From positions 1,029,335 through 1,093,334 of the forward strand of contig JAXLRK010000001.1 of the NCBI GenBank assembly GCA_046331155.1: a DNA stretch of 64,000 nt, in the 5' to 3' direction. Below, piece after piece: positions 1-59,479 of this stretch. Each line of letters opens with the position of its first letter. The first letter of the stretch is position 1. Both the position numbers and the translations under genes were made by a program. The notes below the pieces were generated by a model. The model made no database searches and was not told the DNA's origin. It saw nothing but the letters and a program-made list of their open reading frames with translations. This DNA comes from Acidimicrobiia bacterium (GTDB lineage: Bacteria; Actinomycetota; Acidimicrobiia; IMCC26256; CAWATG01).

Positions 1-328
1 CTACGACGCGTACTACGGCCAGGCGCAACGAGTGCGGACGCTCATCATCCGCGATTTCTCGCGCGCCTACGAGCGTTTCGACGTGCTGCTGTCGCCGACG
101 TCGCCGACGACCGCGTTCGAGCTCGGCGCGAAGACCGCCGACCCCCTCGCGATGTACCTCTCCGACGTCTGCACGATCCCGACGAACCTGGCCGGTCATC
201 CCGCGGTGTCGGTGCCGTTCGGCGTCGCGGGCGACGGCCTGCCGATCGGGGTCCAGGTGCTGGCGCCCACGCTCGGGGAGCGAGTGATGTTCCGCGTGGC
301 CCGGGCGATCGAGCTGGGAGCCCAGTGA
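1..328 (+). CDS. gatA: Glu-tRNA(Gln)/Asp-tRNA(Asn) amidotransferase subunit A, C-terminal fragment (gene starts upstream of window)
   Basis: Frame is open from the window edge. Translation [19 protein letters not shown]...[16 protein letters not shown]...[18 protein letters not shown] is the conserved GatA C-terminus, and gatB follows. Confidence 0.9.
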
Positions 329-426
329 GCGAGCGTGGGGAGGCGGGTATCCCGCCGAGCAGCGAGCGTGGCCTGCCGGCCCGGCGCCGCAGGCGCCAGG
401 AGGCAAGACAGGAGGCAATGGCGTGA
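325..426 (+). repeat. Intercistronic repeat element, family A copy 1, with 33-codon mini-ORF ([33 protein letters not shown])
   Basis: GTG 325-327 overlaps the gatA TGA 326-328 (GTGA). The mini-ORF TGA 424-426 overlaps the gatB GTG 423-425 (GTGA). Near-identical copies lie at 24921-25004 (+) and 59390-59479 (-). Hairpins GGCGGG-TAT-CCCGCC and GGCGCC-GCA-GGCGCC are present, and AGGAGG sits at the 3' end. Confidence 0.85.
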
Positions 427-6974: not shown

Positions 6975-7669
6975 CCTCGATCGCCGCCGGCATCGACGTG
7001 CCGGTGACGTCGCGATCGCGCCCGGAGGTCCTGCTCCTCCGCATGACCGGCCTGGCGCTGTTCCTGCTGGTACCCGCCGCGGTGAGCAGCCTGGCCCTGA
7101 GCCGCCCCGGTCACCGCGTGGCGTGGCTGCTCTGCGGCTACTCGCCGGAGCGGTTGGTCCACGGTGAGGTCTGGACCCTCCCGGCGAGCGCGTTCATGCT
7201 GGCGAGGCTGGCCACCATCGGGCCCACCACCATCCTCGTCGCCGTCGTCTTCATGCCGTTCGTGCTGGTCAACGGCCTCCGCAAGGCGGTGTGGACGTTC
7301 ATCGTCGGCCACGTCGGTGCGACGCTCGCGGTCTTCGCCGTCGTCGTCCCGCTCGCGGCGCTGGGAGCCCCGTGGGCGAGGCACGTCTACCTCACCCGCG
7401 ATGTCGGCGCCTCCGCCGGCCTCATGGCCGTCGCCGGCGCGATGTGCGTGGTGCTCGCGCGCCGCGCGCCGGCGCTCGGCGTGGGGCTCGCCGTGCTGCT
7501 GTTCGGGTTCTTCGTCGTATGGGAGGTCGTCCACGGCGAGAACGCGGGTCGGGTGCTCGCCGACGTGGAGCACCTCCTCGCCTTCACGATCGGGGCCGCG
7601 CTCGAGTGGCGGGCGGCGACGCCGAGCGCCCTGCCCCCGAACCCTACGATGGCGGCGTGCGCGTCCTAG
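6971..7669 (+). CDS. Rhomboid-like polytopic membrane protein (degenerate GxSG: VGASAG; EHLLAF histidine motif)
   Basis: 232 aa. The ATG overlaps the upstream stop (ATGA at 6971-6974). There are about 6 hydrophobic segments. GEVWTLPASAFM resembles the rhomboid WR-x-x-T-x-x-F-x-H region. Confidence 0.7.
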   Translation: MTSIAAGIDVPVTSRSRPEVLLLRMTGLALFLLVPAAVSSLALSRPGHRVAWLLCGYSPERLVHGEVWTLPASAFMLARLATIGPTTILVAVVFMPFVLVNGLRKAVWTFIVGHVGATLAVFAVVVPLAALGAPWARHVYLTRDVGASAGLMAVAGAMCVVLARRAPALGVGLAVLLFGFFVVWEVVHGENAGRVLADVEHLLAFTIGAALEWRAATPSALPPNPTMAACAS

Positions 7670-13135: not shown

Positions 13136-14860
13136 ATGAAACTCACCGGAGCCCAGGCCCTGATCAAGAGCCTCGAGATGGAGGGGACGGAGGTCATGTT
13201 CGGCCTCCCGGGAGGCGCGATCCTCCCGGTCTACGACCCGCTCATCGAGTCCTCGATCCGTCACATCCTCGTGCGCCACGAGCAGGGCGCGGGCCACATG
13301 GCCGAGGGGTACGCCCACGTCACCGGCAGACCCGGCGTCGCCATGGTCACCAGCGGTCCGGCGGCCACGAACATCGTGACCCCGCTGTGCAACGCCTACA
13401 TGGACTCCACCCCGCTCGTCGTCGTCACGGGGCAGGTGCCGTACGCGGTCATCGGGACCGACGCGTTCCAGGAGGCGGACACCGTCGGCATCACCATGCC
13501 GGTCACGAAGCACAACTGGCTCGTGACGGACGCCAACGACATCCCCGACGTGATCCGCGAGGCGTTCCACGTCGCGACGACCGGCCGGCCCGGCCCCGTG
13601 CTCGTCGACGTGCCGAAGGACGTGTCGAACCAGCAGATGGACTGGCACTGGCCCGAGTCCGTGGACCTTCCCGGCTACAAGCCGTACTCGAAGGGGCACC
13701 CGAAGCAGATCAAGGAGGCGGCGCGGCTCGTCAACGAGTCGCAGCGGCCCGTGATCTACGCGGGCGGCGGCATCCTCAAGGCGCGCGCTGCGCAGACGTT
13801 GCGGCAGCTGGCCGAGCTCACGGGCGCGCACGTCGTGACGACGCTGATGGCGCGGGGCGCGTTCCCCGACGACCACCCGCTGTGCCTCGGCATGCCCGGC
13901 ATGCACGGCAACTACACCGCGATCACCGCGATGCAGCAGGCGGACTTGCTCATCACCCTCGGCGCCCGGTTCGACGACCGCGTCACCGGCAAGGTCAGCG
14001 CGTTCGCGCCCGACGCCAAGATCATCCATGCCGACATCGACCCGGCCGAGCTCGGCAAGGTCCGCCGCCCGGACGTGCCGATCGTGGGCGACTGCCGCCT
14101 CGTGATCGAAGAGCTGGTGAAGGCGGTCAGGGTCGAGCAGGGGAAGAAGGCGAAGCCGGACCTGTCCGCGTGGGACGCGCAGATCGACCAGTGGCGGCGC
14201 GACTTCCCGTTGCGATACGAGCAGAGCCAGGACGGCGGGCCGCTCAAGCCGCAGTTCGTCGTCGAGTGCCTGCGCGACAACACGCCCGACGACACGATCG
14301 TCACGGCGGGCGTCGGCCAGCACCAGATGTGGACGAGCCAGTACTGGAAGTTCAACCACCCGTACACGTTCGTGAACTCGGGTGGTCTCGGCACGATGGG
14401 CTTCTCGGTGCCCGCCGCGATCGGCGCCAAGGTCGGCATGCCCGACCGGATGGTCTGGTCGATCGACGGCGACGGCTGCTTCCAGATGACCGCGCAGGAG
14501 CTGGTGACGGCGTCGGCCGAGCGCATCCCGGTGAAGGTCGCCATCCTCAACAACGCGTACCTCGGGATGGTGCGCCAGTGGCAGGAGCTCTTCTACGAGG
14601 AGCGCTACAGCGAGGTGTACCTGTCGCCCGACCTGCCCGACTACGTGAAGTGGGCCGAGGCGATGGGCTGCGTCGGGTTCCGGGTGGAGACGCCCGAAGA
14701 CGTCGTGCCGACGATCGAGAAGGCCAACGAGATCGACGACCGGCCCGTCGTCGTCGACTTCCGGACCGACTACCGGGAGAAGGTGTACCCGATGGTCGCG
14801 GCCGGCACGTCGAACGACGACGTGATCATGGGCCCCGAGTTCGGCGAAGGCGGCCGGTGA
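13136..14860 (+). CDS. ilvB: Acetolactate synthase (acetohydroxy-acid synthase) large subunit
   Basis: MKLTGAQALIKSLE...HEQGAGHMAEGYA...GLGTMGFSVPAAIGAK...IDGDGCFQM, the ThDP-enzyme signature. The ATG is preceded by GGGAG. Confidence 0.95.
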   Translation: MKLTGAQALIKSLEMEGTEVMFGLPGGAILPVYDPLIESSIRHILVRHEQGAGHMAEGYAHVTGRPGVAMVTSGPAATNIVTPLCNAYMDSTPLVVVTGQVPYAVIGTDAFQEADTVGITMPVTKHNWLVTDANDIPDVIREAFHVATTGRPGPVLVDVPKDVSNQQMDWHWPESVDLPGYKPYSKGHPKQIKEAARLVNESQRPVIYAGGGILKARAAQTLRQLAELTGAHVVTTLMARGAFPDDHPLCLGMPGMHGNYTAITAMQQADLLITLGARFDDRVTGKVSAFAPDAKIIHADIDPAELGKVRRPDVPIVGDCRLVIEELVKAVRVEQGKKAKPDLSAWDAQIDQWRRDFPLRYEQSQDGGPLKPQFVVECLRDNTPDDTIVTAGVGQHQMWTSQYWKFNHPYTFVNSGGLGTMGFSVPAAIGAKVGMPDRMVWSIDGDGCFQMTAQELVTASAERIPVKVAILNNAYLGMVRQWQELFYEERYSEVYLSPDLPDYVKWAEAMGCVGFRVETPEDVVPTIEKANEIDDRPVVVDFRTDYREKVYPMVAAGTSNDDVIMGPEFGEGGR

Positions 14861-14994
14861 GACGAAGCGGAGGCCTGGCCGGAGGCCGGGTGGCCGGAGC
14901 GGAGCTCGAACTGAGGAGGGTGAGACGAAGCGGAGGCCTGGCCGGAGGCCGGGTGGCCGGAGCGGAGCTCGAACTGAGGAGGCAAGACCGATGA
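14857..14994 (+). repeat. 63-bp perfect tandem duplication (14857-14919, 14920-14982) plus a 12-nt tail, forming a 45-codon mini-ORF bridging ilvB and ilvN
   Basis: GTG 14857 overlaps the ilvB TGA 14858-14860. The frame stays open through both units ((VRRSGGLAGGRVAGAELELRR)x2 QDR), and its TGA 14992-14994 overlaps the ilvN ATG 14991. The 3' end GAGGAGGCAAGA matches the tail of family A copies. Confidence 0.9.
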
Positions 14995-20408: not shown

Positions 20409-23400
20409 TCAGCGCCGGAACCGCAGCCCGCGTGGGACATCCTGGAATCCGGCGGCACGCAGCGGCTCGGCGAGGGGCGACTCGCGGGCGGGCGTACCGT
20501 CGACGTGGCGCAGCTCGAGCGTGCGGATGCGTCCGTCCTTCACGAGCCCGGTCAGCGCATCGATCCACGCGGCCGGCTCGACGGTCGACGGGAAGGTCAG
20601 GAGGGTGCGCCCGCCGCGTTCGAGGAAGGCGACGAGCTCGCCGTCGACCATGACCACCGACGCGCCCGCGGCCCGCGCCGGGCGCCCCGGCGACTCCGGC
20701 CAGGCGAGTGCGGACCCGTAGGGCTGGGCCGGGTCCGTGGCCGCGAGGACGAGGACCGACGGGTGTTCGCGCTCGGGTGCGCGTTCGGCGCGCAAGCGGT
20801 CGACGGCACCGGGCAGTGCGAACTGCGCGGCGCCGAGGCCGGCGACGAAGTAGCCGCGCCGCGCCCGCCCCGACTCCTCGAGCGCGCGCAGCACGCCGTA
20901 CACGCCGGCGAACCCGCCGGGGGTCGCTTCCGCGCGTACCGCTTCGCGGGTCACCACGCCGTGACGCTCGAGCATCTGGACGGCCCGGGCGTGCGCGCGC
21001 TCGGTGTCGCCCGGCTCGGGGACGCGCAGCGGTGCCACGAGCGACCACCGGCCTTGCCCTGCGGGGGGTCCGAGGCGCGTGAGCCGGCCCGGGCGCGGCC
21101 GGCCCCGCGGCGCGCGTGGCCGGCCGGCGAGGCGGGCGCGCACGGGCGCGAACGAGTCGTTGGTGACCTCACCGGACCAGGCGAGCTCCCAGAGCGCGTC
21201 GAGCAGGACGCGGTCGTCGTGCTGTCCGGTGGCCGCGACGAGGTCGAGCCAGAACGACGCGCCGCGCGCCGCGAGGTGCTCGCGGATCGCGTCGACCACC
21301 GGCCCGGAGGGTGGGTCGGCGGCCGGAACCGGTGCGGGCGCGAGGAGGCGGGCCCGGTCGCGGAAGACGAGGGCGACGCGCCCGTCGGTCGCGCCGATGG
21401 CGCCGGCGCCGATCCACACGACCTCACCGCCCGCGCAGAGCGCGTCGAGGTCGGCGCTGCGATACGGCGCGAGCCTCGAAGCGAGCACGTCGACCTCGAG
21501 GGACGAGGCCGGGAGAGGGATCCCTTCGAGCCGGCCGATCACGTCGACCAGGCCTTCGGGCCCGCGACGGTCGGAGCCGACGCCCTGCCAGGCGGGGAGG
21601 AAACGAGCGTACGTCGCCGGGTCGACGGGCTCGATCTCGTGGCGGAGCGCGGCGAGCGAACGCCGCCGCAACGAGCGGAGCACCTCGGGGTCGCACCACT
21701 CCCGTTCCGCTCCCCCGGGCCGGAACTCGCCCTGGACCACGCGGCCGGCCGACTCCAGGTCGATCAGCACCCGGCGGACCACGTCTGCTTCGACGCCGAA
21801 GCGACGGGCCGGCTCGTCGGTCGTGAACGGGACGTGCGTGCGCGCGTACCGGGCGACCAGGTCGCGCATCGGGGCGTCGACCGGGTCGGTGAACACCGAG
21901 GGGAGTCCGGGTGGGATCGCGACGCCCAGCGCGTCGCGGTAGCGGGCCGCGTCGTCGACCGCGATCACGCGGCGCTCGCCCGCGATCGAGGTCCGCAACG
22001 CCCTGCGGTCGGCGACGAGCTCGTCTATCCAGTCGCCCGGCGGGTCGCAGGACCGGGCGGCGAGGTCGGAATCGGAGAGGTCGCCGAGCGTGCGGAGGAG
22101 ATCGTGCAGGTCGTCGGCATGACGGGCCCGGCGTGACGACGTGAGGTGCTGGAGGTCGAGCTCGAGGTCCGCGAGCGCCGACGGGTCGATGAGCTCGCGC
22201 AGCTCCTCCGCACCGAGCAGGTCGCGCAGCAGGTCGCGGTCGAGCGAGAGCGCGGCTGCGCGTCGCTCGGCGAGGGGTGCGTCACCCTCGTACATGTAGT
22301 TCGCGATCCAGCCGAACAGCAGCGACTGCGCGAACGGGGACGCGGTGCGGGTCTCGACCGGGACCATGCGGATTCGTCGCGCCCGAAGGTCCGTCATCAC
22401 CTCGCGCAGCGCGGGCACGTCGAACACGTCACGCAGGCACTCACGCGTCGTCTCGAGGAGGATCGGAAACGTCGGGTACCGCGCCGCGACCTCGAGCAGG
22501 TCCGCGGCGCGCTGGCGCTGCTGCCAGAGCGGTGTCCGCTGGCCCGGCCGGCGGCGGGGGAGGAGCAGGGCGCGGGCCGCGGCCTCGCGGAACCGGGCCG
22601 CGAAGAGTGCCGTCGCCGGGAGCTGTTCGACCACGAGCTCGTCGACGTCCTCCGGTTCGATCACGAGGTCGTCGGTGGGGATGGACTCGACGGACTCCGG
22701 GAGGCGGAGCACGATGCCGTCGTCGCTCCACAGCACCTGCACCGCGCTGTCGAACCGTTGCGCGAGCCGGGCTTCGATGGCCAGCGCCCACGGTGCGTGC
22801 ACCCGGGAGCCGAACGGCGAGAGGATGCACACCCGCCAGTCGCCGATCTCGTCCGGGAACCGTTCGACGACGATGGTGCGGTCGTCGGGCACGACGCCGG
22901 TGGCCGCGGCCTGCTCGTCGAGGTACGACAGCACGTTGCGCGCCGCGAGGTCGTCGAGGCAGCTTCGTTCGTGCAGAAGCGCCTGCGCCTGCACGGGCGA
23001 AGCGTGGCGCAGCTCGCGCAAGGTCGCGCCGAGCGCACGGCCGAGCTCGAGCGGCCGGCCGGGCTTGTCGCCGTGCCAGAACGGCATCCGGGCCGGTTCG
23101 CCGGGCGCGGGCACGACGATCACGCGGTCGTGGGTGATCTGGTCGATGCGCCACGTCGACGCGCCGAGCGTGAACGCCTCGCCGGGTCGGCTCTCGTACA
23201 CCATCTCCTCGTCGAGCTCGCCGACGCGGGTGCCGTCGGGAAGGAACACGCCGAACAGCCCGCGGTCGGGGATGGTGCCACCGTTGGTGATGGCGATCCG
23301 CTGGGCGCCCTCGCGGGCGCGCACGCGACCGTGCACCCGGTCCCACACGACGCGCGGACGCAACTCGGCGAAGTCGTCCGACGGGTACCGACCGGACAGG

Positions 23401-24881
23401 AGGTCGAGGACCGCGCTGAAGGTGTCGTCGGTGAGGTCGGCGAAGTTCGCGCTGCGGCGGACGAGCGCCAGCAGGTCGTCGACCGCCCACTCGTCGACCG
23501 CGCAGGCGGCCACGATCTGTTGTGCGAGCACGTCGAGCGGGTTGCGCGGGTAACGGGTCTCCTCGACGAGCCCGTCGCGCATCCGTGCGGTGACGACCGC
23601 GGCCTCGACGAGGTCGCCCCGGTACTTCGGGAAGATCGTGCCGCGGCTGGGCTCGCCCACGTGATGGCCGGCGCGGCCGATGCGCTGAAGGCCGCGGGCG
23701 ACCGATCCGGGGGACTCGACCTGGATCACGAGGTCGACCGTGCCCATGTCGATGCCGAGCTCGAGCGAGCTGGTGGCGACGAGCGCCCGCAACCGGCCGA
23801 CCTTGAGGTCGTCCTCGATCTGCAGCCGCTGCTCGCGCGCCAGCGACCCGTGGTGGGCGCGCACGAGGTCGGGCTTCCCGGTGCCGGGGCCGCAGCCGGC
23901 CAGCTCGTTGAGTCGGGCGGCCAGGCGTTCGGCGAGACGGCGGGCGTTGACGAAGATCAGCGTCGTGCGGTGGGACTCGATGAGCTCGAGGATCCGTGGG
24001 TGTACGTGGGGCCAGATGCTCGCCCGCGCTTCGCCGGGTACGGCCCCGCTGCCGGTGGGCGGTTCGTGGGTGCCGAGCTCGCCGAGGTCCTCGACGGGGA
24101 CGACCACGTCGAGGTCGAGGGGCTTGCGGGCGCCGGCGTCGACGATCGTGACCGGTCGTGGACCCGCCGCGGTCATCCCGCCCAGGAACCGGGCGATCTC
24201 GTCGAGTGGTCGTTGGGTGGCCGACAGGCCGATGCGCTGCGGTGGGCGGCGCGTGATGGCTTCGAGCCGCTCGAGGCTGAGCGAGAGGTGCGCGCCGCGT
24301 TTCGTGCCGGCCACCGCGTGGATCTCGTCGACGACGACGCATTCGACGGAGCGGAGGAGCTCGCGCGCCTGTGAGGTGAGCATGAGGTAGAGGGACTCGG
24401 GGGTCGTGATGAGGATGTCGGGTGGGGTGCGCAACATCCGCTGGCGGTCCCGCGACGGCGTGTCGCCGGTGCGCATCCCGACGGTCGGTTCGTGCCCGGC
24501 CGGGTCGAGCCCGAGCCGGTCCGCGGCCAGCCGGATACCGGTGAGCGGAGCGCGCAGGTTCTTCTCCACGTCGACCGCGAGGGCCTTGAGCGGCGACACG
24601 TACAGCACGCGGCAGCGGTCGGCCTTGGCCGGGACCGGTTGCGTGATCAGCCGGTCGATCGCCCAGAGGAACGCCGCCAGCGTCTTACCGGAGCCGGTCG
24701 GGGCCAGGAGGAGGGTGTGGTCGCCGCGGGCGATCGGGGGCCAGCCCGCGGCCTGAGCGTCGGTCGGCGCGGGGAACGACGTCTCGAACCAGGCGGCGAC
24801 GGGCGGGGAGAAGCGGTCGAGCCCCACCGCGCAACGGTACCCCGCCTCGAGAGGTGGCGATCTTCGTGGTCTCGCGTTCAT
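20409..24881 (-). CDS. lhr: Lhr-family ATP-dependent DNA/RNA helicase (large helicase-related protein)
   Basis: 1490 aa. Walker A APTGSGKT, DEIH box (VVVDEIHAV), helicase C motifs, and a long C-terminal extension typical of Lhr. The start could be slightly downstream. Confidence 0.93.
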   Translation of the reverse strand: MNARPRRSPPLEAGYRCAVGLDRFSPPVAAWFETSFPAPTDAQAAGWPPIARGDHTLLLAPTGSGKTLAAFLWAIDRLITQPVPAKADRCRVLYVSPLKALAVDVEKNLRAPLTGIRLAADRLGLDPAGHEPTVGMRTGDTPSRDRQRMLRTPPDILITTPESLYLMLTSQARELLRSVECVVVDEIHAVAGTKRGAHLSLSLERLEAITRRPPQRIGLSATQRPLDEIARFLGGMTAAGPRPVTIVDAGARKPLDLDVVVPVEDLGELGTHEPPTGSGAVPGEARASIWPHVHPRILELIESHRTTLIFVNARRLAERLAARLNELAGCGPGTGKPDLVRAHHGSLAREQRLQIEDDLKVGRLRALVATSSLELGIDMGTVDLVIQVESPGSVARGLQRIGRAGHHVGEPSRGTIFPKYRGDLVEAAVVTARMRDGLVEETRYPRNPLDVLAQQIVAACAVDEWAVDDLLALVRRSANFADLTDDTFSAVLDLLSGRYPSDDFAELRPRVVWDRVHGRVRAREGAQRIAITNGGTIPDRGLFGVFLPDGTRVGELDEEMVYESRPGEAFTLGASTWRIDQITHDRVIVVPAPGEPARMPFWHGDKPGRPLELGRALGATLRELRHASPVQAQALLHERSCLDDLAARNVLSYLDEQAAATGVVPDDRTIVVERFPDEIGDWRVCILSPFGSRVHAPWALAIEARLAQRFDSAVQVLWSDDGIVLRLPESVESIPTDDLVIEPEDVDELVVEQLPATALFAARFREAAARALLLPRRRPGQRTPLWQQRQRAADLLEVAARYPTFPILLETTRECLRDVFDVPALREVMTDLRARRIRMVPVETRTASPFAQSLLFGWIANYMYEGDAPLAERRAAALSLDRDLLRDLLGAEELRELIDPSALADLELDLQHLTSSRRARHADDLHDLLRTLGDLSDSDLAARSCDPPGDWIDELVADRRALRTSIAGERRVIAVDDAARYRDALGVAIPPGLPSVFTDPVDAPMRDLVARYARTHVPFTTDEPARRFGVEADVVRRVLIDLESAGRVVQGEFRPGGAEREWCDPEVLRSLRRRSLAALRHEIEPVDPATYARFLPAWQGVGSDRRGPEGLVDVIGRLEGIPLPASSLEVDVLASRLAPYRSADLDALCAGGEVVWIGAGAIGATDGRVALVFRDRARLLAPAPVPAADPPSGPVVDAIREHLAARGASFWLDLVAATGQHDDRVLLDALWELAWSGEVTNDSFAPVRARLAGRPRAPRGRPRPGRLTRLGPPAGQGRWSLVAPLRVPEPGDTERAHARAVQMLERHGVVTREAVRAEATPGGFAGVYGVLRALEESGRARRGYFVAGLGAAQFALPGAVDRLRAERAPEREHPSVLVLAATDPAQPYGSALAWPESPGRPARAAGASVVMVDGELVAFLERGGRTLLTFPSTVEPAAWIDALTGLVKDGRIRTLELRHVDGTPARESPLAEPLRAAGFQDVPRGLRFRR

Positions 24882-24920
24882 GTCGCTGCCTCTTGGGGGC
24901 CGGTCGGTACCATCCGGCGC

Positions 24921-25004
24921 GTGAGTGAGCGTCGGGAGGCGGGTATCCTGCCGAGCAGCGAGCGTGGCCCAGCGGCCCGGCGCCGAAGGCGCCAGGAGCG
25001 GTAG
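24921..25004 (+). repeat. Repeat element, family A copy 2 (27-codon mini-ORF VSERREAGILPSSERGPAARRRRRQER)
   Basis: Aligns end to end with 325-426 and 59390-59479. It lies in the divergent lhr/acyltransferase intergenic region. TAG 25002-25004 ends 2 nt before the acyltransferase GTG 25007, and a GGAG motif lies at its 3' end. Confidence 0.85.
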
Positions 25005-25006
25005 GC

Positions 25007-26122
25007 GTGGAGACCACCGAGCCTCGACCGACCGTGGAGCGGTTCCGGCTCGGCTACCGGCCCGCGCTCGACGGCATCCGCGGCGTCTCCGTGCTCGCCG
25101 TCATGGCCTACCACGTCGGGCTGTCGTGGATGAGCGGTGGATTCCTCGGCGTCGACGCGTTCTTCGTGCTGTCCGGTTTCCTCATCACGAGCCTGCTCCT
25201 CGAGGAATGGCACGACCGGGGCCGGATCAACCTCCGCAACTTCTACGCGCGCCGCCTCTTGCGGTTGACACCTGCGCTGCTGCTCGTGCTCGCGGTCGTG
25301 GGCAGCTACGCGGTGTTCCTCGAGCGCGGTGCGGTACGCGACGCGATCTACCCGGAGGCCGCGTCGACGATCCTGTACTCGGCGAACTGGTTCGCGGCGA
25401 CGGGATCGCAGTTCCCCTTCCATCTCGCGCACACCTGGTCGCTCGCGATCGAGGAACAGTTCTACCTGGTGTGGCCGCTGGCGGTCGTCGCCATCCTCTC
25501 GTGGTCGGGCCGGGTGCGCTCACTGCTGTGGACGACCGTGGGCATCGCGTGCGCATCGGCGTTGCTCATGCCGATGATGACGGGCTTCGGCGATCACCGC
25601 GTCGAGCGCGCCTACTTCGGGACCGACACCCGCGCCCAGTCCCTTCTGATCGGTTGTGCCATCGCGTGCGTGGCCTTCCTCGGCGATCTCCCGCGTTCGA
25701 CCGCGGCCGTTGCGAGGGTCCGTGCCGGTGCCGTGGCCTCGGCCGTGTTCGTCGTCGGGCTGTGGGTCCTGCTGGACGGCACGGGCAGCGCGTTCCTCTT
25801 CGCGGGTGGATTCGCCCTCGAGGGCCTCGCCGTGGGCGTGATCGTCGTGCACGTGCTGCTCGAGCCCGGCGCGCCGATCCCGCGGGCCCTCGCAGCCCGT
25901 TCCGCCCGCTGGGTCGGCCGGATCTCGTACGGCCTGTACCTCTGGCACTGGCCGGTCTTCACCGTGGTCGACCGGTGGGGCCTGGCCTTCTGGCCGGGCG
26001 TGGTCGTGAAGTTCGCCCTGACGTTCGGGTTCGCGACCGCCTCCTTCTACGGGTTGGAGCAGCCGGTCCTGGCCCTGAAGCGCCGGTTCCGTGGTGCGGG
26101 CTCGGGCCGGTCCGCTCCGTGA
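25007..26122 (+). CDS. Acyltransferase family 3 (OafA/YrhL-type membrane O-acyltransferase)
   Basis: 371 aa. LDGIRGVSVLAVMAYH...GVDAFFVLSGFLIT signature; polytopic. Confidence 0.9.
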   Translation: METTEPRPTVERFRLGYRPALDGIRGVSVLAVMAYHVGLSWMSGGFLGVDAFFVLSGFLITSLLLEEWHDRGRINLRNFYARRLLRLTPALLLVLAVVGSYAVFLERGAVRDAIYPEAASTILYSANWFAATGSQFPFHLAHTWSLAIEEQFYLVWPLAVVAILSWSGRVRSLLWTTVGIACASALLMPMMTGFGDHRVERAYFGTDTRAQSLLIGCAIACVAFLGDLPRSTAAVARVRAGAVASAVFVVGLWVLLDGTGSAFLFAGGFALEGLAVGVIVVHVLLEPGAPIPRALAARSARWVGRISYGLYLWHWPVFTVVDRWGLAFWPGVVVKFALTFGFATASFYGLEQPVLALKRRFRGAGSGRSAP

Positions 26123-56370: not shown

Positions 56371-57026
56371 CGGCTCCTCCCGAACTCGGGCTGGACGGCG
56401 AGCACGGTGCCGCGCTCCAGGGACACGGACGCCCTCGGCGCCGCGAGCTCGTTGCTGATCCCGCGAGTGGACCCGGGTTCGAGCACCGCGCCGTCGAGCG
56501 CGAAACGCAGACCGATGGTGCGCACGCCGCGCGCCGGGCCGCCGACGGCGAGCAGCGAGCAGAGATCGCCCACCGCACCCGTGAGGTCGACCGGGAATCC
56601 CGGCCGCGCGACGGCGAGCCGCGCGTCGCCCACGTATGCCTCGATCGCGAGGTGTGCGAACGCCGGCGCACTCAGGACCAGCGCGTTGGCCAGGAGGTGG
56701 TCGAGGCGCCCACCGGCCCCGCCCACGACGACCACCCTGCGCGCTCCCCGAGCCGACGCCTCGAGGAGCGCGAGCTCGAGGTCGGTGTGGTCCTTGTCGA
56801 CCGGGTGGCGCACGGTTGTCGTGCCGCTCCGTTCGGCGCGCGCGACCGCCGCCGGGTCGGCCGAGTCGAGGTCGCCCACGAGGACGTCGACGGTCAGGCC
56901 GAGAGGCCCGGCGTTGGCGAGCCCGGAGTCGGCCGCGACGACGACCGACGGTTCGGGCAGGAACGAGCGAAGTGTCGGACTTGCCGGATCTCCTCCGGCG
57001 AGCACGACCGCGGTGGGTACGGCCAT
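56367..57026 (-). CDS. thiN: Thiamine pyrophosphokinase
   Basis: 219 aa from ATG 57026 (GGAGGGAGGA SD). VLAGGD...GDLDS...HPVDKDHTDLELAL...GGAGGRLDH motifs. The upstream ATG 57047 lies inside the riboswitch core. Confidence 0.85.
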   Translation of the reverse strand: MAVPTAVVLAGGDPASPTLRSFLPEPSVVVAADSGLANAGPLGLTVDVLVGDLDSADPAAVARAERSGTTTVRHPVDKDHTDLELALLEASARGARRVVVVGGAGGRLDHLLANALVLSAPAFAHLAIEAYVGDARLAVARPGFPVDLTGAVGDLCSLLAVGGPARGVRTIGLRFALDGAVLEPGSTRGISNELAAPRASVSLERGTVLAVQPEFGRSR

Positions 57027-57029
57027 GGT

Positions 57030-57115
57030 TCCTCCCTCCGCTGGCATTACCCAGTGCAGGTTCAGCGGGTCGGTGACGGATCGCGGTCACCCTCTCAGCC
57101 CGGCGCCCCGAGCTC
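57030..57115 (-). promoter_or_regulatory. TPP (THI-box) riboswitch
   Basis: The minus-strand read is GGGGCGCCGGGCUGAGAGGGUGACCGCGAUCCGUCACCGACCCGCUGAACCUGCACUGGGUAAUGCCAGCGGAGGGAGG. It contains the conserved CUGAGA, ACCC..UGAACCUG and UAAUGCCAGCG blocks. Its 3' end contains the SD of thiN. Confidence 0.9.
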
Positions 57116-57180
57116 CCCGAAACGGTCGACCCGTCAGGGTACCGGCGCCCGCCCGCTGCCGCCCGTCGCGGGTCGGTCGT

Positions 57181-59393: not shown

Positions 59394-59479
59394 CCTCTTG
59401 CCTCCTGGCGCCTGCGGCGCCGGGCCGGCAGGCCACGCTCGCTGCTCGGCGGGATACCCGCCTCCCGACGCTCGCTCAT
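59390..59479 (-). repeat. Intercistronic repeat element, family A copy 3 (29-codon mini-ORF MSERREAGIPPSSERGLPARRRRRQEARG)
   Basis: On the minus strand, ATG 59479-59477 overlaps the GCS2 TGA 59478-59476 (ATGA). Its TGA 59392-59390 overlaps the amidohydrolase TTG 59393-59391 (TTGA). It is nearly identical to 325-426. Confidence 0.85.

Follow-up and report, generated by a model that had tools for sequence, protein, structure and literature searches.

How is a hairpin-bearing repeat to be understood when it lies between two divergent genes, although its relatives are typically co-directional with the genes on either side? The question arises at positions 24921-25006 (+ strand) of a 64-kb stretch of contig JAXLRK010000001.1 (the whole stretch is referred to here as the window). 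There, the second of three copies of a repeat that we call Family A separates the gene of an Lhr helicase from that of an acyltransferase, without a co-directional gene upstream of it. The window has a G+C content of 72% and comes from a 2.63-Mb contig of an Acidimicrobiia metagenome-assembled genome (MAG). An earlier reading of the letters alone (the original prediction) held that the substitutions of this copy spare its hairpin stems, that selection acts on an RNA structure rather than on the encoded peptide, and that the element can serve as a 5' leader. We now regard it as fairly probable that copy 2 belongs to a dispersed repeat of the type of the mycobacterial interspersed repetitive units (MIRUs) and that this repeat behaves as a mobile "translational-coupling cassette" seated on start codons, here at the +1 position of a leaderless mRNA.

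Copy 2 is a full-length member of a dispersed repeat family

Copy 2 comprises 86 bases (GTGAGTGAGCGTCGGGAGGCGGGTATCCTGCCGAGCAGCGAGCGTGGCCCAGCGGCCCGGCGCCGAAGGCGCCAGGAGCGGTAGGC) and is followed directly by the GTG at 25007 of the acyltransferase gene (25007-26122, +; 371 aa, Acyl_transf_3, Pfam E = 9e-27). The distance from its own GTG to that of the acyltransferase, 86 nt, is the canonical unit length of Family A. Its divergent neighbor on the minus strand is the Lhr helicase, a 1490-aa open reading frame (ORF) with the Pfam domains DEAD, WH_Lhr, and DEAD_assoc. Copy 2 carries a mini-ORF of 27 codons (24921-25004, +; VSERREAGILPSSERGPAARRRRRQER) that opens with GTG and ends with TAG (25002-25004). 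This stop is followed by GC and then by the acyltransferase GTG, and the canonical TGA/ATG overlap of the family is missing because the downstream start reads GTGG. Three hairpins lie within the mini-ORF: hairpin 1 (24938-24952, +; GGCGGG-TAT-CCTGCC, with the wobble pair G24941-U24949), hairpin 2 (24966-24977, +; GGCC-CAGC-GGCC), and hairpin 3 (24979-24993, +; GGCGCC-GAA-GGCGCC). A Shine-Dalgarno (SD)-like AGGAG supplied by the element (24994-24998, +) stands 8 nt upstream of the acyltransferase GTG; across Family A, this position reads AGGAG, GAGAG, or AAGAG. The coordinates, the sequence, the divergent setting, and the TAG 2 nt before the GTG are all as the original prediction described them.

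A pattern scan of the window returned three matches, compared with 0.01 expected by chance, with cores of ~78 nt at 325-402 (+), 24921-24998 (+), and 59479-59402 (−). All three had nhmmer E-values of ~2e-22 and scored 79-94 bits with a covariance model, for which the next best match in the window reached 17.9 bits. Copy 2 was matched over the full model (positions 1-95) at 92.8 bits. Copy 1 (325-422, +), which is 91% identical to copy 2, lies between gatA and gatB; its GTGA overlaps the gatA stop, and the TGA of its 33-codon ORF overlaps the gatB GTG at 423. Copy 3 (59394-59479, −) is flanked by a gene of the GCS2 family and one for an M20 peptidase, with an ATGA that overlaps the upstream stop and a 29-codon ORF whose TGA overlaps the downstream TTG (59393-59391).

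For a wider sample, GTDB species genomes were scanned with the exact central 20-mer and JGI metagenomes with an exact anchor pair that left the three hairpins unconstrained, and nhmmer and covariance-model searches were applied after both scans. This yielded 128 matches (126 distinct) from 98 sources, namely 97 contigs and the window. Almost all sources are soil metagenomes or MAGs assigned to Acidimicrobiia or to uncultured Actinomycetes/Actinomycetota. The start-to-start distance is ~86-89 nt and the repeat unit ~87 nt, with consensus ends ATGAGCGAGCG... and ...GAGCGGGAAAC(ATGA). By inspection, the consensus has no terminal inverted repeats, and GAGCG motifs recur in it as direct repeats. 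Tandem arrays of two to three units occur in six contigs (L093, L107, L004, L017, L076, and L119); at all three window sites the element is single-copy.

The phasing of the element between its neighbors is preserved. Most of the 112 non-redundant complete copies start with ATGA or GTGA, and in 60 of the 112 a long upstream ORF with high G+C at third codon positions (GC3) is closed by the element's RTGA. The internal ORF most often has 29 codons (45/112 copies) and next most often 30 (19/112). Its TGA stop overlaps a downstream ATG, GTG, or TTG in 86 of 97 short-ORF copies, and the downstream gene stands in the −1 frame relative to the element ORF in 62 of 79 copies, where one third would be expected.

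Two kinds of variant were seen in the sample. Five copies (L009 6360, L070 7041, L071 916, L096 479, and L115 8662) have an ORF that runs in frame into the downstream gene with no stop between; in these, the element could form a translated N-terminal extension, or gene callers could be extending the gene too far. Four others (L080 944-1032, L068 9590-9682, L023 5589-5705, and L082 1975-2079) carry extra hairpin modules between hairpin 2 and the tail, for example GCCGTCGC-TTGC-GCGACGGC followed by GGCGC-GAA-GCGCC, which suggests modular growth of the element.

The mini-ORF is kept open and in phase while its peptide varies

The uniform length of the ORF, its ATG or GTG start, and the fact that all versions begin with MSER and are Arg-rich could point to a functional, conserved small protein, with the repeat as a small gene family. 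The central part of the element speaks strongly against this. The nucleotide core GAGGCGGGTATCCCGCCGAGCAGCGAGCGTGGCC is nearly invariant across Family A, yet it lies 34 nt from the start codon in 55 copies and 35 nt in 53. The shift stems from a 1-nt indel near the 5' end, with compensating length changes further downstream. As a result, about equal numbers of copies read the core in one or the other of two frames, MSERREAGIPPSSERG... and MSERPRGGYPAEQRAWP... (in context ...REAGIPPSSERG... and ...RGGYPAEQRAWP...), with unrelated middle sequences but with ORF length and end overlaps kept. This two-frame reading rules out a sequence-specific peptide. Changes from copy to copy are also non-synonymous; translation of the window copies confirmed the IP to IL and LP to PA replacements named in the original prediction. 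Conservation is seen instead at the level of nucleotides and pairing. We therefore rejected the small-protein explanation and consider it very improbable. Judged from the copies themselves, the pattern shows selection, or survivorship, acting on the openness and phase of the mini-ORF.

The hairpin stems covary across the family

The original prediction argued for structure from the differences between the three window copies. The changes it listed are present: TGCC to CAGC in the loop of hairpin 2, GCA to GAA in the loop of hairpin 3, and CCCGCC to CCTGCC, which gives G24941-U24949. A further difference of copy 2 is a C to T change at element position 6. That these substitutions spare the stems is not significant from three copies alone, since by our count one of seven differences falls within the 32 of 78 positions that lie in stems (binomial P ~0.15), and the three changes in the hairpin-2 loop adjoin one another. 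Furthermore, the CAGC loop and GAGCGG tail of copy 2 are common to copies of other genomes (e.g., L020 and L018) and thus mark a subfamily rather than independent local substitutions.

The larger sample carries the argument. From a MAFFT alignment of 72 typical copies, RNAalifold recovered the same three hairpins unaided. In this alignment, 97.4% of cells were paired versus 88.4% in shuffles, none of 500 shuffles reaching the observed value, and double-sided changes occurred in 11 of 16 pairs (3.8 expected; 68 compensated cells). The model-based alignment of all 126 copies gave 96.5% paired cells versus 85.6% in shuffles, with double-sided changes in every one of the 16 pairs (140 compensated cells), and slid controls stayed at or below 51% paired in both alignments. 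The many-copy covariation check suggested alongside the original prediction, carried out here by pair counting, thus finds stem changes compensated in excess of shuffles. Together with the two-frame core, covariation in both sets bears out the preference for structure over peptide.

All six pairs of hairpin 1 covary, with pair 2 exchanged between GC and CG in 35 copies. Variants read via the anchors, without alignment or structure fitting, were GGCGGG/CCCGCC, GCCGGG/CCCGGC, GGCCGG/CCGGCC, GCCCGG/CCGGGC, and GGCAGG/CCTGCC. Hairpin 2 has a nearly invariant stem and a variable loop. Hairpin 3 is the strongest covarying helix, its variants including GGCGCC, GGCGGC/GCCGCC, GCCGCC/GGCGGC, GGCCC/GGGCC, GGTGC/GCACC, and AGTGCC/GGCACT.

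A second argument of the original prediction does not hold. It took the G-U pair of copy 2, which forms only when the transcript is read in the sense orientation, as a sign of sense RNA. Family-wide, G·U cells are matched by A·C cells (which are G·U if read on the antisense strand): the ratio of G·U to A·C is 7:3 in the MAFFT set, 4:9 among unique hairpin-1 sequences, and 18:18 in the full set. Covariation is silent on whether the hairpins are RNA or DNA and on whether they were selected in situ or in source copies. The lack of strand asymmetry favors a rival explanation, according to which Family A is a selfish DNA element whose hairpins are single-stranded-DNA recognition structures for a transposase or recombinase, similar to those of REP/RAYT elements or of IS200/IS605-derived PATEs, which are inserted beside a specific tetranucleotide; the hairpins at 24921 would then have no RNA-structural role. 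The ORF, the SD, and the phasing would serve only as the filter through which insertions at start codons are able to survive. The position of the hairpins points the same way, since they lie in a translated frame and would be melted by ribosomes. The free variation of the hairpin-3 stem with its pairing kept does not, as this would be unusual for a DNA hairpin recognized by a protein.

Empty sites in relatives mark the copies as insertions

In three relatives of the window genome (L133, L134, and L135; GatB 80-87% identical), gatA and gatB are joined by a single, element-free ATGA or GTGA overlap, while the window reads GTGA, element, GTGA. By sequence comparison, these are classic empty and filled sites with the tetranucleotide on either side. 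Since relatives have empty sites, the Family A copies are, on this sequence evidence, insertions. Mobility with RTGA on both sides again suits a selfish DNA element, as do the tandem arrays described above.

Three acyltransferase orthologues, at 77%, 72%, and 55% identity, are likewise without the element; their loci are those of L130 (the one at 55%), L129, and L132. This bears on another rival, close to the 5'-leader claim of the original prediction, in which copy 2 is a gene-specific cis-regulatory RNA leader of the acyltransferase, such as a riboswitch, an attenuator, or a thermosensor. Its position directly upstream of the gene, with conserved hairpins beside an SD, would suit such a role. 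The same element, however, precedes gatB and genes for an M20 peptidase, a UDP-glucose dehydrogenase-like protein, enolase, and many other unrelated products. Rfam yielded no family for it at gathering or relaxed thresholds (best relaxed match E = 4.1), and a terminator scan of 24500-25300 found none. The distribution before unrelated genes effectively refutes the riboswitch or attenuator reading, and we see scarcely any chance for a gene-specific leader of any kind.

In the closest relative with a long contig (L129), a DUF222 gene (1884-2921) lies between lhr and the acyltransferase gene. DUF222 corresponds to the 13E12-repeat/HNH-type family of mycobacteria, and its presence here marks the lhr/acyltransferase intergenic region as a recurrent insertion site. 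A contig with an identical acyltransferase gene (L052; Logan contig SRR26348421_238149) begins 34 nt upstream of the gene, inside the repeat, and thus indicates that Family A elements fragment short-read assemblies. The repeats can also lead gene callers astray, so that start codons are extended.

Copy 2 most likely begins at the +1 of a leaderless mRNA

Leaderless genes of actinobacteria are recognized by a TANNNT hexamer that stands 6-8 nt before an RTG. In the window, the −10-like hexamer TACCAT (24908-24913, +) is followed after 7 nt by the GTG of the element; the sequence reads ...cggTACCATccggcgcGTG, with C at −1. The element-free orthologous acyltransferase loci have TACGAT, 7-8 nt, and then the ATG of the acyltransferase itself. 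Upstream of this ATG, they read ...cgaTACGATcccgcccgATG in L132, ...cggTACGATcccgccgATG in L129, and ...cggTACGATccgcctccATG in L130 and L131. As read from these sequences, the first base of copy 2 is most likely the +1 of a leaderless mRNA. On the same comparison, the element is located 3' of the acyltransferase −10 box and outside the shared promoter space, and begins at what would be the ancestral start-codon site. We therefore refine the leader claim of the original prediction, because the orthologues carry TACGAT-N7-8-ATG and the window TACCAT-N7-GTG with the GTG of the element. The element does stand directly 5' of the gene, but the term conventional untranslated leader of a promoter region does not fit it.

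The lhr side of the region shows a similar arrangement. The lhr gene probably starts at GTG 24827-24825 (20409-24827, −), preceded by TACCGT (24839-24834) and 6 nt. This predicted start lies 54 nt inside the mechanical ORF, which opens with ATG 24881. TACCGT-N6-GTG at lhr is kept in L130 (2893-2907, −), where the acyltransferase is 55% identical, and the two divergent start codons, that of lhr and that of the acyltransferase or element, are 93 nt apart in the window versus 105 nt in L130. Within the window, ORFs of 100 codons or more open at ten TANNNT-N6-8-RTG sites, and the GC3 is at least 0.91 in all of them, which suggests that leaderless genes may be common in this genome. Sites of this form include a divergent pair at 2884 (−) and 2971 (+) and those at 7656, 30360, 32439, 35912, 38877, 41555, and 52555.

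Family A recurs in this setting. Among the copies without a coupled upstream gene, a TANNNT hexamer at 6-8 nt precedes 3 of 35 (0.26 expected, ~12-fold, P = 0.002), and one at 4-10 nt precedes 6 of 34 (P = 2e-5). Recurrences are TACGCT-N8-ATG in L078 and TTGACA-N18-TATTTT-N7-ATG in L002, with comparable arrangements in L084 and L073. L108, which our ORF heuristic had scored as coupled, is a likely further case (TACGAT-N6-ATG). In L078 and L108, the upstream gene is probably divergent as well.

A coupling cassette as the proposed explanation

In the explanation that we favor, a canonical copy starts with an RTGA that holds the upstream TGA within the element's own start codon, and continues with an open frame of ~29 codons that is free in amino-acid sequence and contains three short G+C-rich hairpins. 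It ends with an SD-like purine run and a TGA stop that overlaps the downstream ATG. Within an operon, a ribosome leaving the upstream gene would re-initiate on the overlapping RTG of the mini-ORF, cross the hairpins in it, and pass to the overlapping downstream start. At the locus studied here, insertion of the element would have hit the start codon of an acyltransferase gene that was leaderless, and transcription would now start, as set by the ancestral −10 box (TACCAT), at the element's GTG or beside it. The leaderless +1 GTG could then play the part of the upstream gene: 70S ribosomes would begin leaderless translation at the 27-codon mini-ORF, terminate at TAG 25002-25004, and initiate anew 2 nt further on at GTG 25007, helped by AGGAG. 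Hairpin 3, which abuts the SD, may limit independent loading of 30S subunits and thereby make downstream initiation depend on the incoming ribosome. We infer this transcription start, the translation of the mini-ORF, the coupling, and the role of hairpin 3. If the scheme holds, a leaderless mRNA has here become a leaderless mini-ORF coupled to an SD-led gene.

Several results weigh against this explanation. A sigma-70 scan for two hexamers, which needs a −35 hexamer, found no promoter in 24500-25300; the −10-only argument draws on knowledge of actinobacterial promoters as well as conservation at three to four orthologous loci. Copy 2 itself lacks the canonical TGA/ATG overlap. Both collection scans needed exact anchors, so that the sample is biased toward conserved cores. 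In high-GC sequence, stop codons are few and the openness of an ORF alone is weak evidence; the argument is therefore carried by the statistics of phase and overlap. As for the hairpins, the balance of G·U and A·C cells gives no direct sign that they are selected as sense RNA at each locus, and selection for mobility, acting on source copies, could have produced the covariation. Between close orthologous copies, for example those located upstream of a UDP-glucose dehydrogenase-like gene in L018, L003, L031, and L125, the stem changes are mostly single-sided and uncompensated. At the GGYLLV* junction, distant "orthologues" show compensatory differences, for which gene conversion or re-insertion may be responsible. 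Single-sequence folds were no more stable than shuffles on either strand (z −0.2 to −1.7), a measure that is uninformative because the sequence is 72% GC. We abandoned the density of rare variants in stems versus loops as a test of selection in situ, the metric being too crude.

The uncompensated changes accumulating in close orthologous copies also fit a selfish DNA element, as does its geometry, with hairpin 1 starting 18 nt from the 5' end and hairpin 3 ending ~13-16 nt before the downstream start. Such subterminal hairpins are reminiscent of IS200/IS605 ends. The consensus nevertheless has neither a GTAG-type REP signature nor, by inspection, terminal inverted repeats, and we met with no transposase, although no search was aimed at transposases. 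We regard the selfish DNA element as possible but rather unlikely; it overlaps largely with the coupling cassette and differs only in the purpose of the hairpins.

A bolder version of the cassette would make Family A a start-codon-seeking mobile element that inserts at RTG(A), both at the stop/start overlaps of operons and at leaderless +1 RTGs, and whose mini-ORF, SD, and structured-RNA module actively sets the coupling ratio between cistrons. If this were true, the element, in spreading through soil Acidimicrobiia, would alter the stoichiometry of operons and turn leaderless genes into SD-led ones coupled to an upstream ORF. We treat this version as speculative and doubt that it is correct.

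Family A has the architecture of MIRUs

MIRUs are used worldwide for the typing of tuberculosis, while their biology is barely understood. We compared Family A with them by architecture, through the published description (Supply et al. 1997, as summarized in PMC3184786). MIRU units of 40-100 bp are dispersed and sometimes in tandem (PMC3184786), comparable to the ~86-89 nt and 126 distinct copies of Family A. As in Family A, they lie between co-directional operon genes in the orientation of these genes, hold a small ORF whose ends overlap the flanking stop and start codons, and contain G+C-rich internal inverted repeats, here the hairpins (PMC3184786). Filled and empty MIRU sites differ by a tetranucleotide direct repeat (PMC3184786), as at gatA/gatB. 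The architecture itself is the known one of MIRUs. The original prediction, whose observation and preference for structure stand and whose G-U argument falls, had missed this MIRU-type architecture and the nature of the copies as insertions.

The hosts differ. According to PMC4213456, MIRUs are restricted to the M. tuberculosis complex and M. leprae, whereas the copies of Family A were found in Acidimicrobiia and other uncultured Actinomycetota and not in Mycobacterium. Our literature search found no description of MIRU-like elements outside mycobacteria or of such repeats in Acidimicrobiia. A full-text search for the core motif GAGCAGCGAGCG returned nothing relevant, and BLAST of the element against PLSDB plasmids gave no match. 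As far as these searches show, four points have not been described for MIRUs: the clade of the hosts, how deep the covariation goes, the reading of one core in two frames, and the occupation of leaderless start codons. An abundant family with MIRU architecture is thus at hand in a distant, uncultured class of Actinomycetota. With over 100 diverged copies, and with empty and filled sites that are clear, it offers a comparative handle on what such elements need to persist, namely the phase and overlap of the mini-ORF and three maintained hairpins, with no constraint on the peptide.

Copy 2 also resembles the leaderless small ORFs of mycobacteria described by Shell et al. 2015 (PMC4633059), which have fewer than 50 codons, start with a +1 RTG after a −10 box, and end just before an annotated gene begins or overlap its start by a tetramer. 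The small ORF of copy 2 differs in coming from an inserted repeat rather than being specific to its locus, and its transcription start site is inferred rather than mapped.

Other hairpin repeats share individual traits with Family A. REP/BIME sequences of Proteobacteria, with their RAYT transposases, are likewise short, abundant, G+C-rich hairpin repeats within transcription units that can affect the fate of mRNA and whose hairpins are kept by compensatory change. A REP, however, is a single imperfect palindrome of ~35 nt with a conserved 5' tetranucleotide, untranslated and mostly located 3' of genes, whereas Family A has a ~87-nt unit, bounded by start and stop, with three distinct hairpins of 4-6 bp in a phased ORF and no GTAG head. 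Rickettsia palindromic elements (RPEs) are mobile hairpin repeats that also persist by keeping frames open. They are inserted in frame inside coding genes and become part of the protein, while Family A forms its own mini-cistron between genes and only in a few copies (e.g., L009, L070, and L071) does it continue in frame into the downstream gene. From MITEs, Family A differs in the absence of terminal inverted repeats from its consensus. Its geometry, with hairpin 1 at position 18 and RTGA at the junctions, is compatible with an IS200/IS605-derived PATE.

Other features of the window

The only Rfam match in the window at gathering score is a TPP riboswitch (RF00059, 59.8 bits) at 57015-57129 (−), which is unrelated to Family A. 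At 14856-14981 (+), the window holds a second repeat family of the same design, present as a perfect tandem duplication of a 63-nt (21-codon) unit with an ORF that spans both units. It lies between the end of an acetolactate-synthase-large-subunit-like gene (ggcGGTGA) and the ATG (cgATGA) of a downstream gene that begins with MTDGFSQHHIFGVLVENKFGVLS. The 3' tail of this repeat, GGAGGCAAGAC, is common to Family A copies 1 and 3 but not to copy 2.

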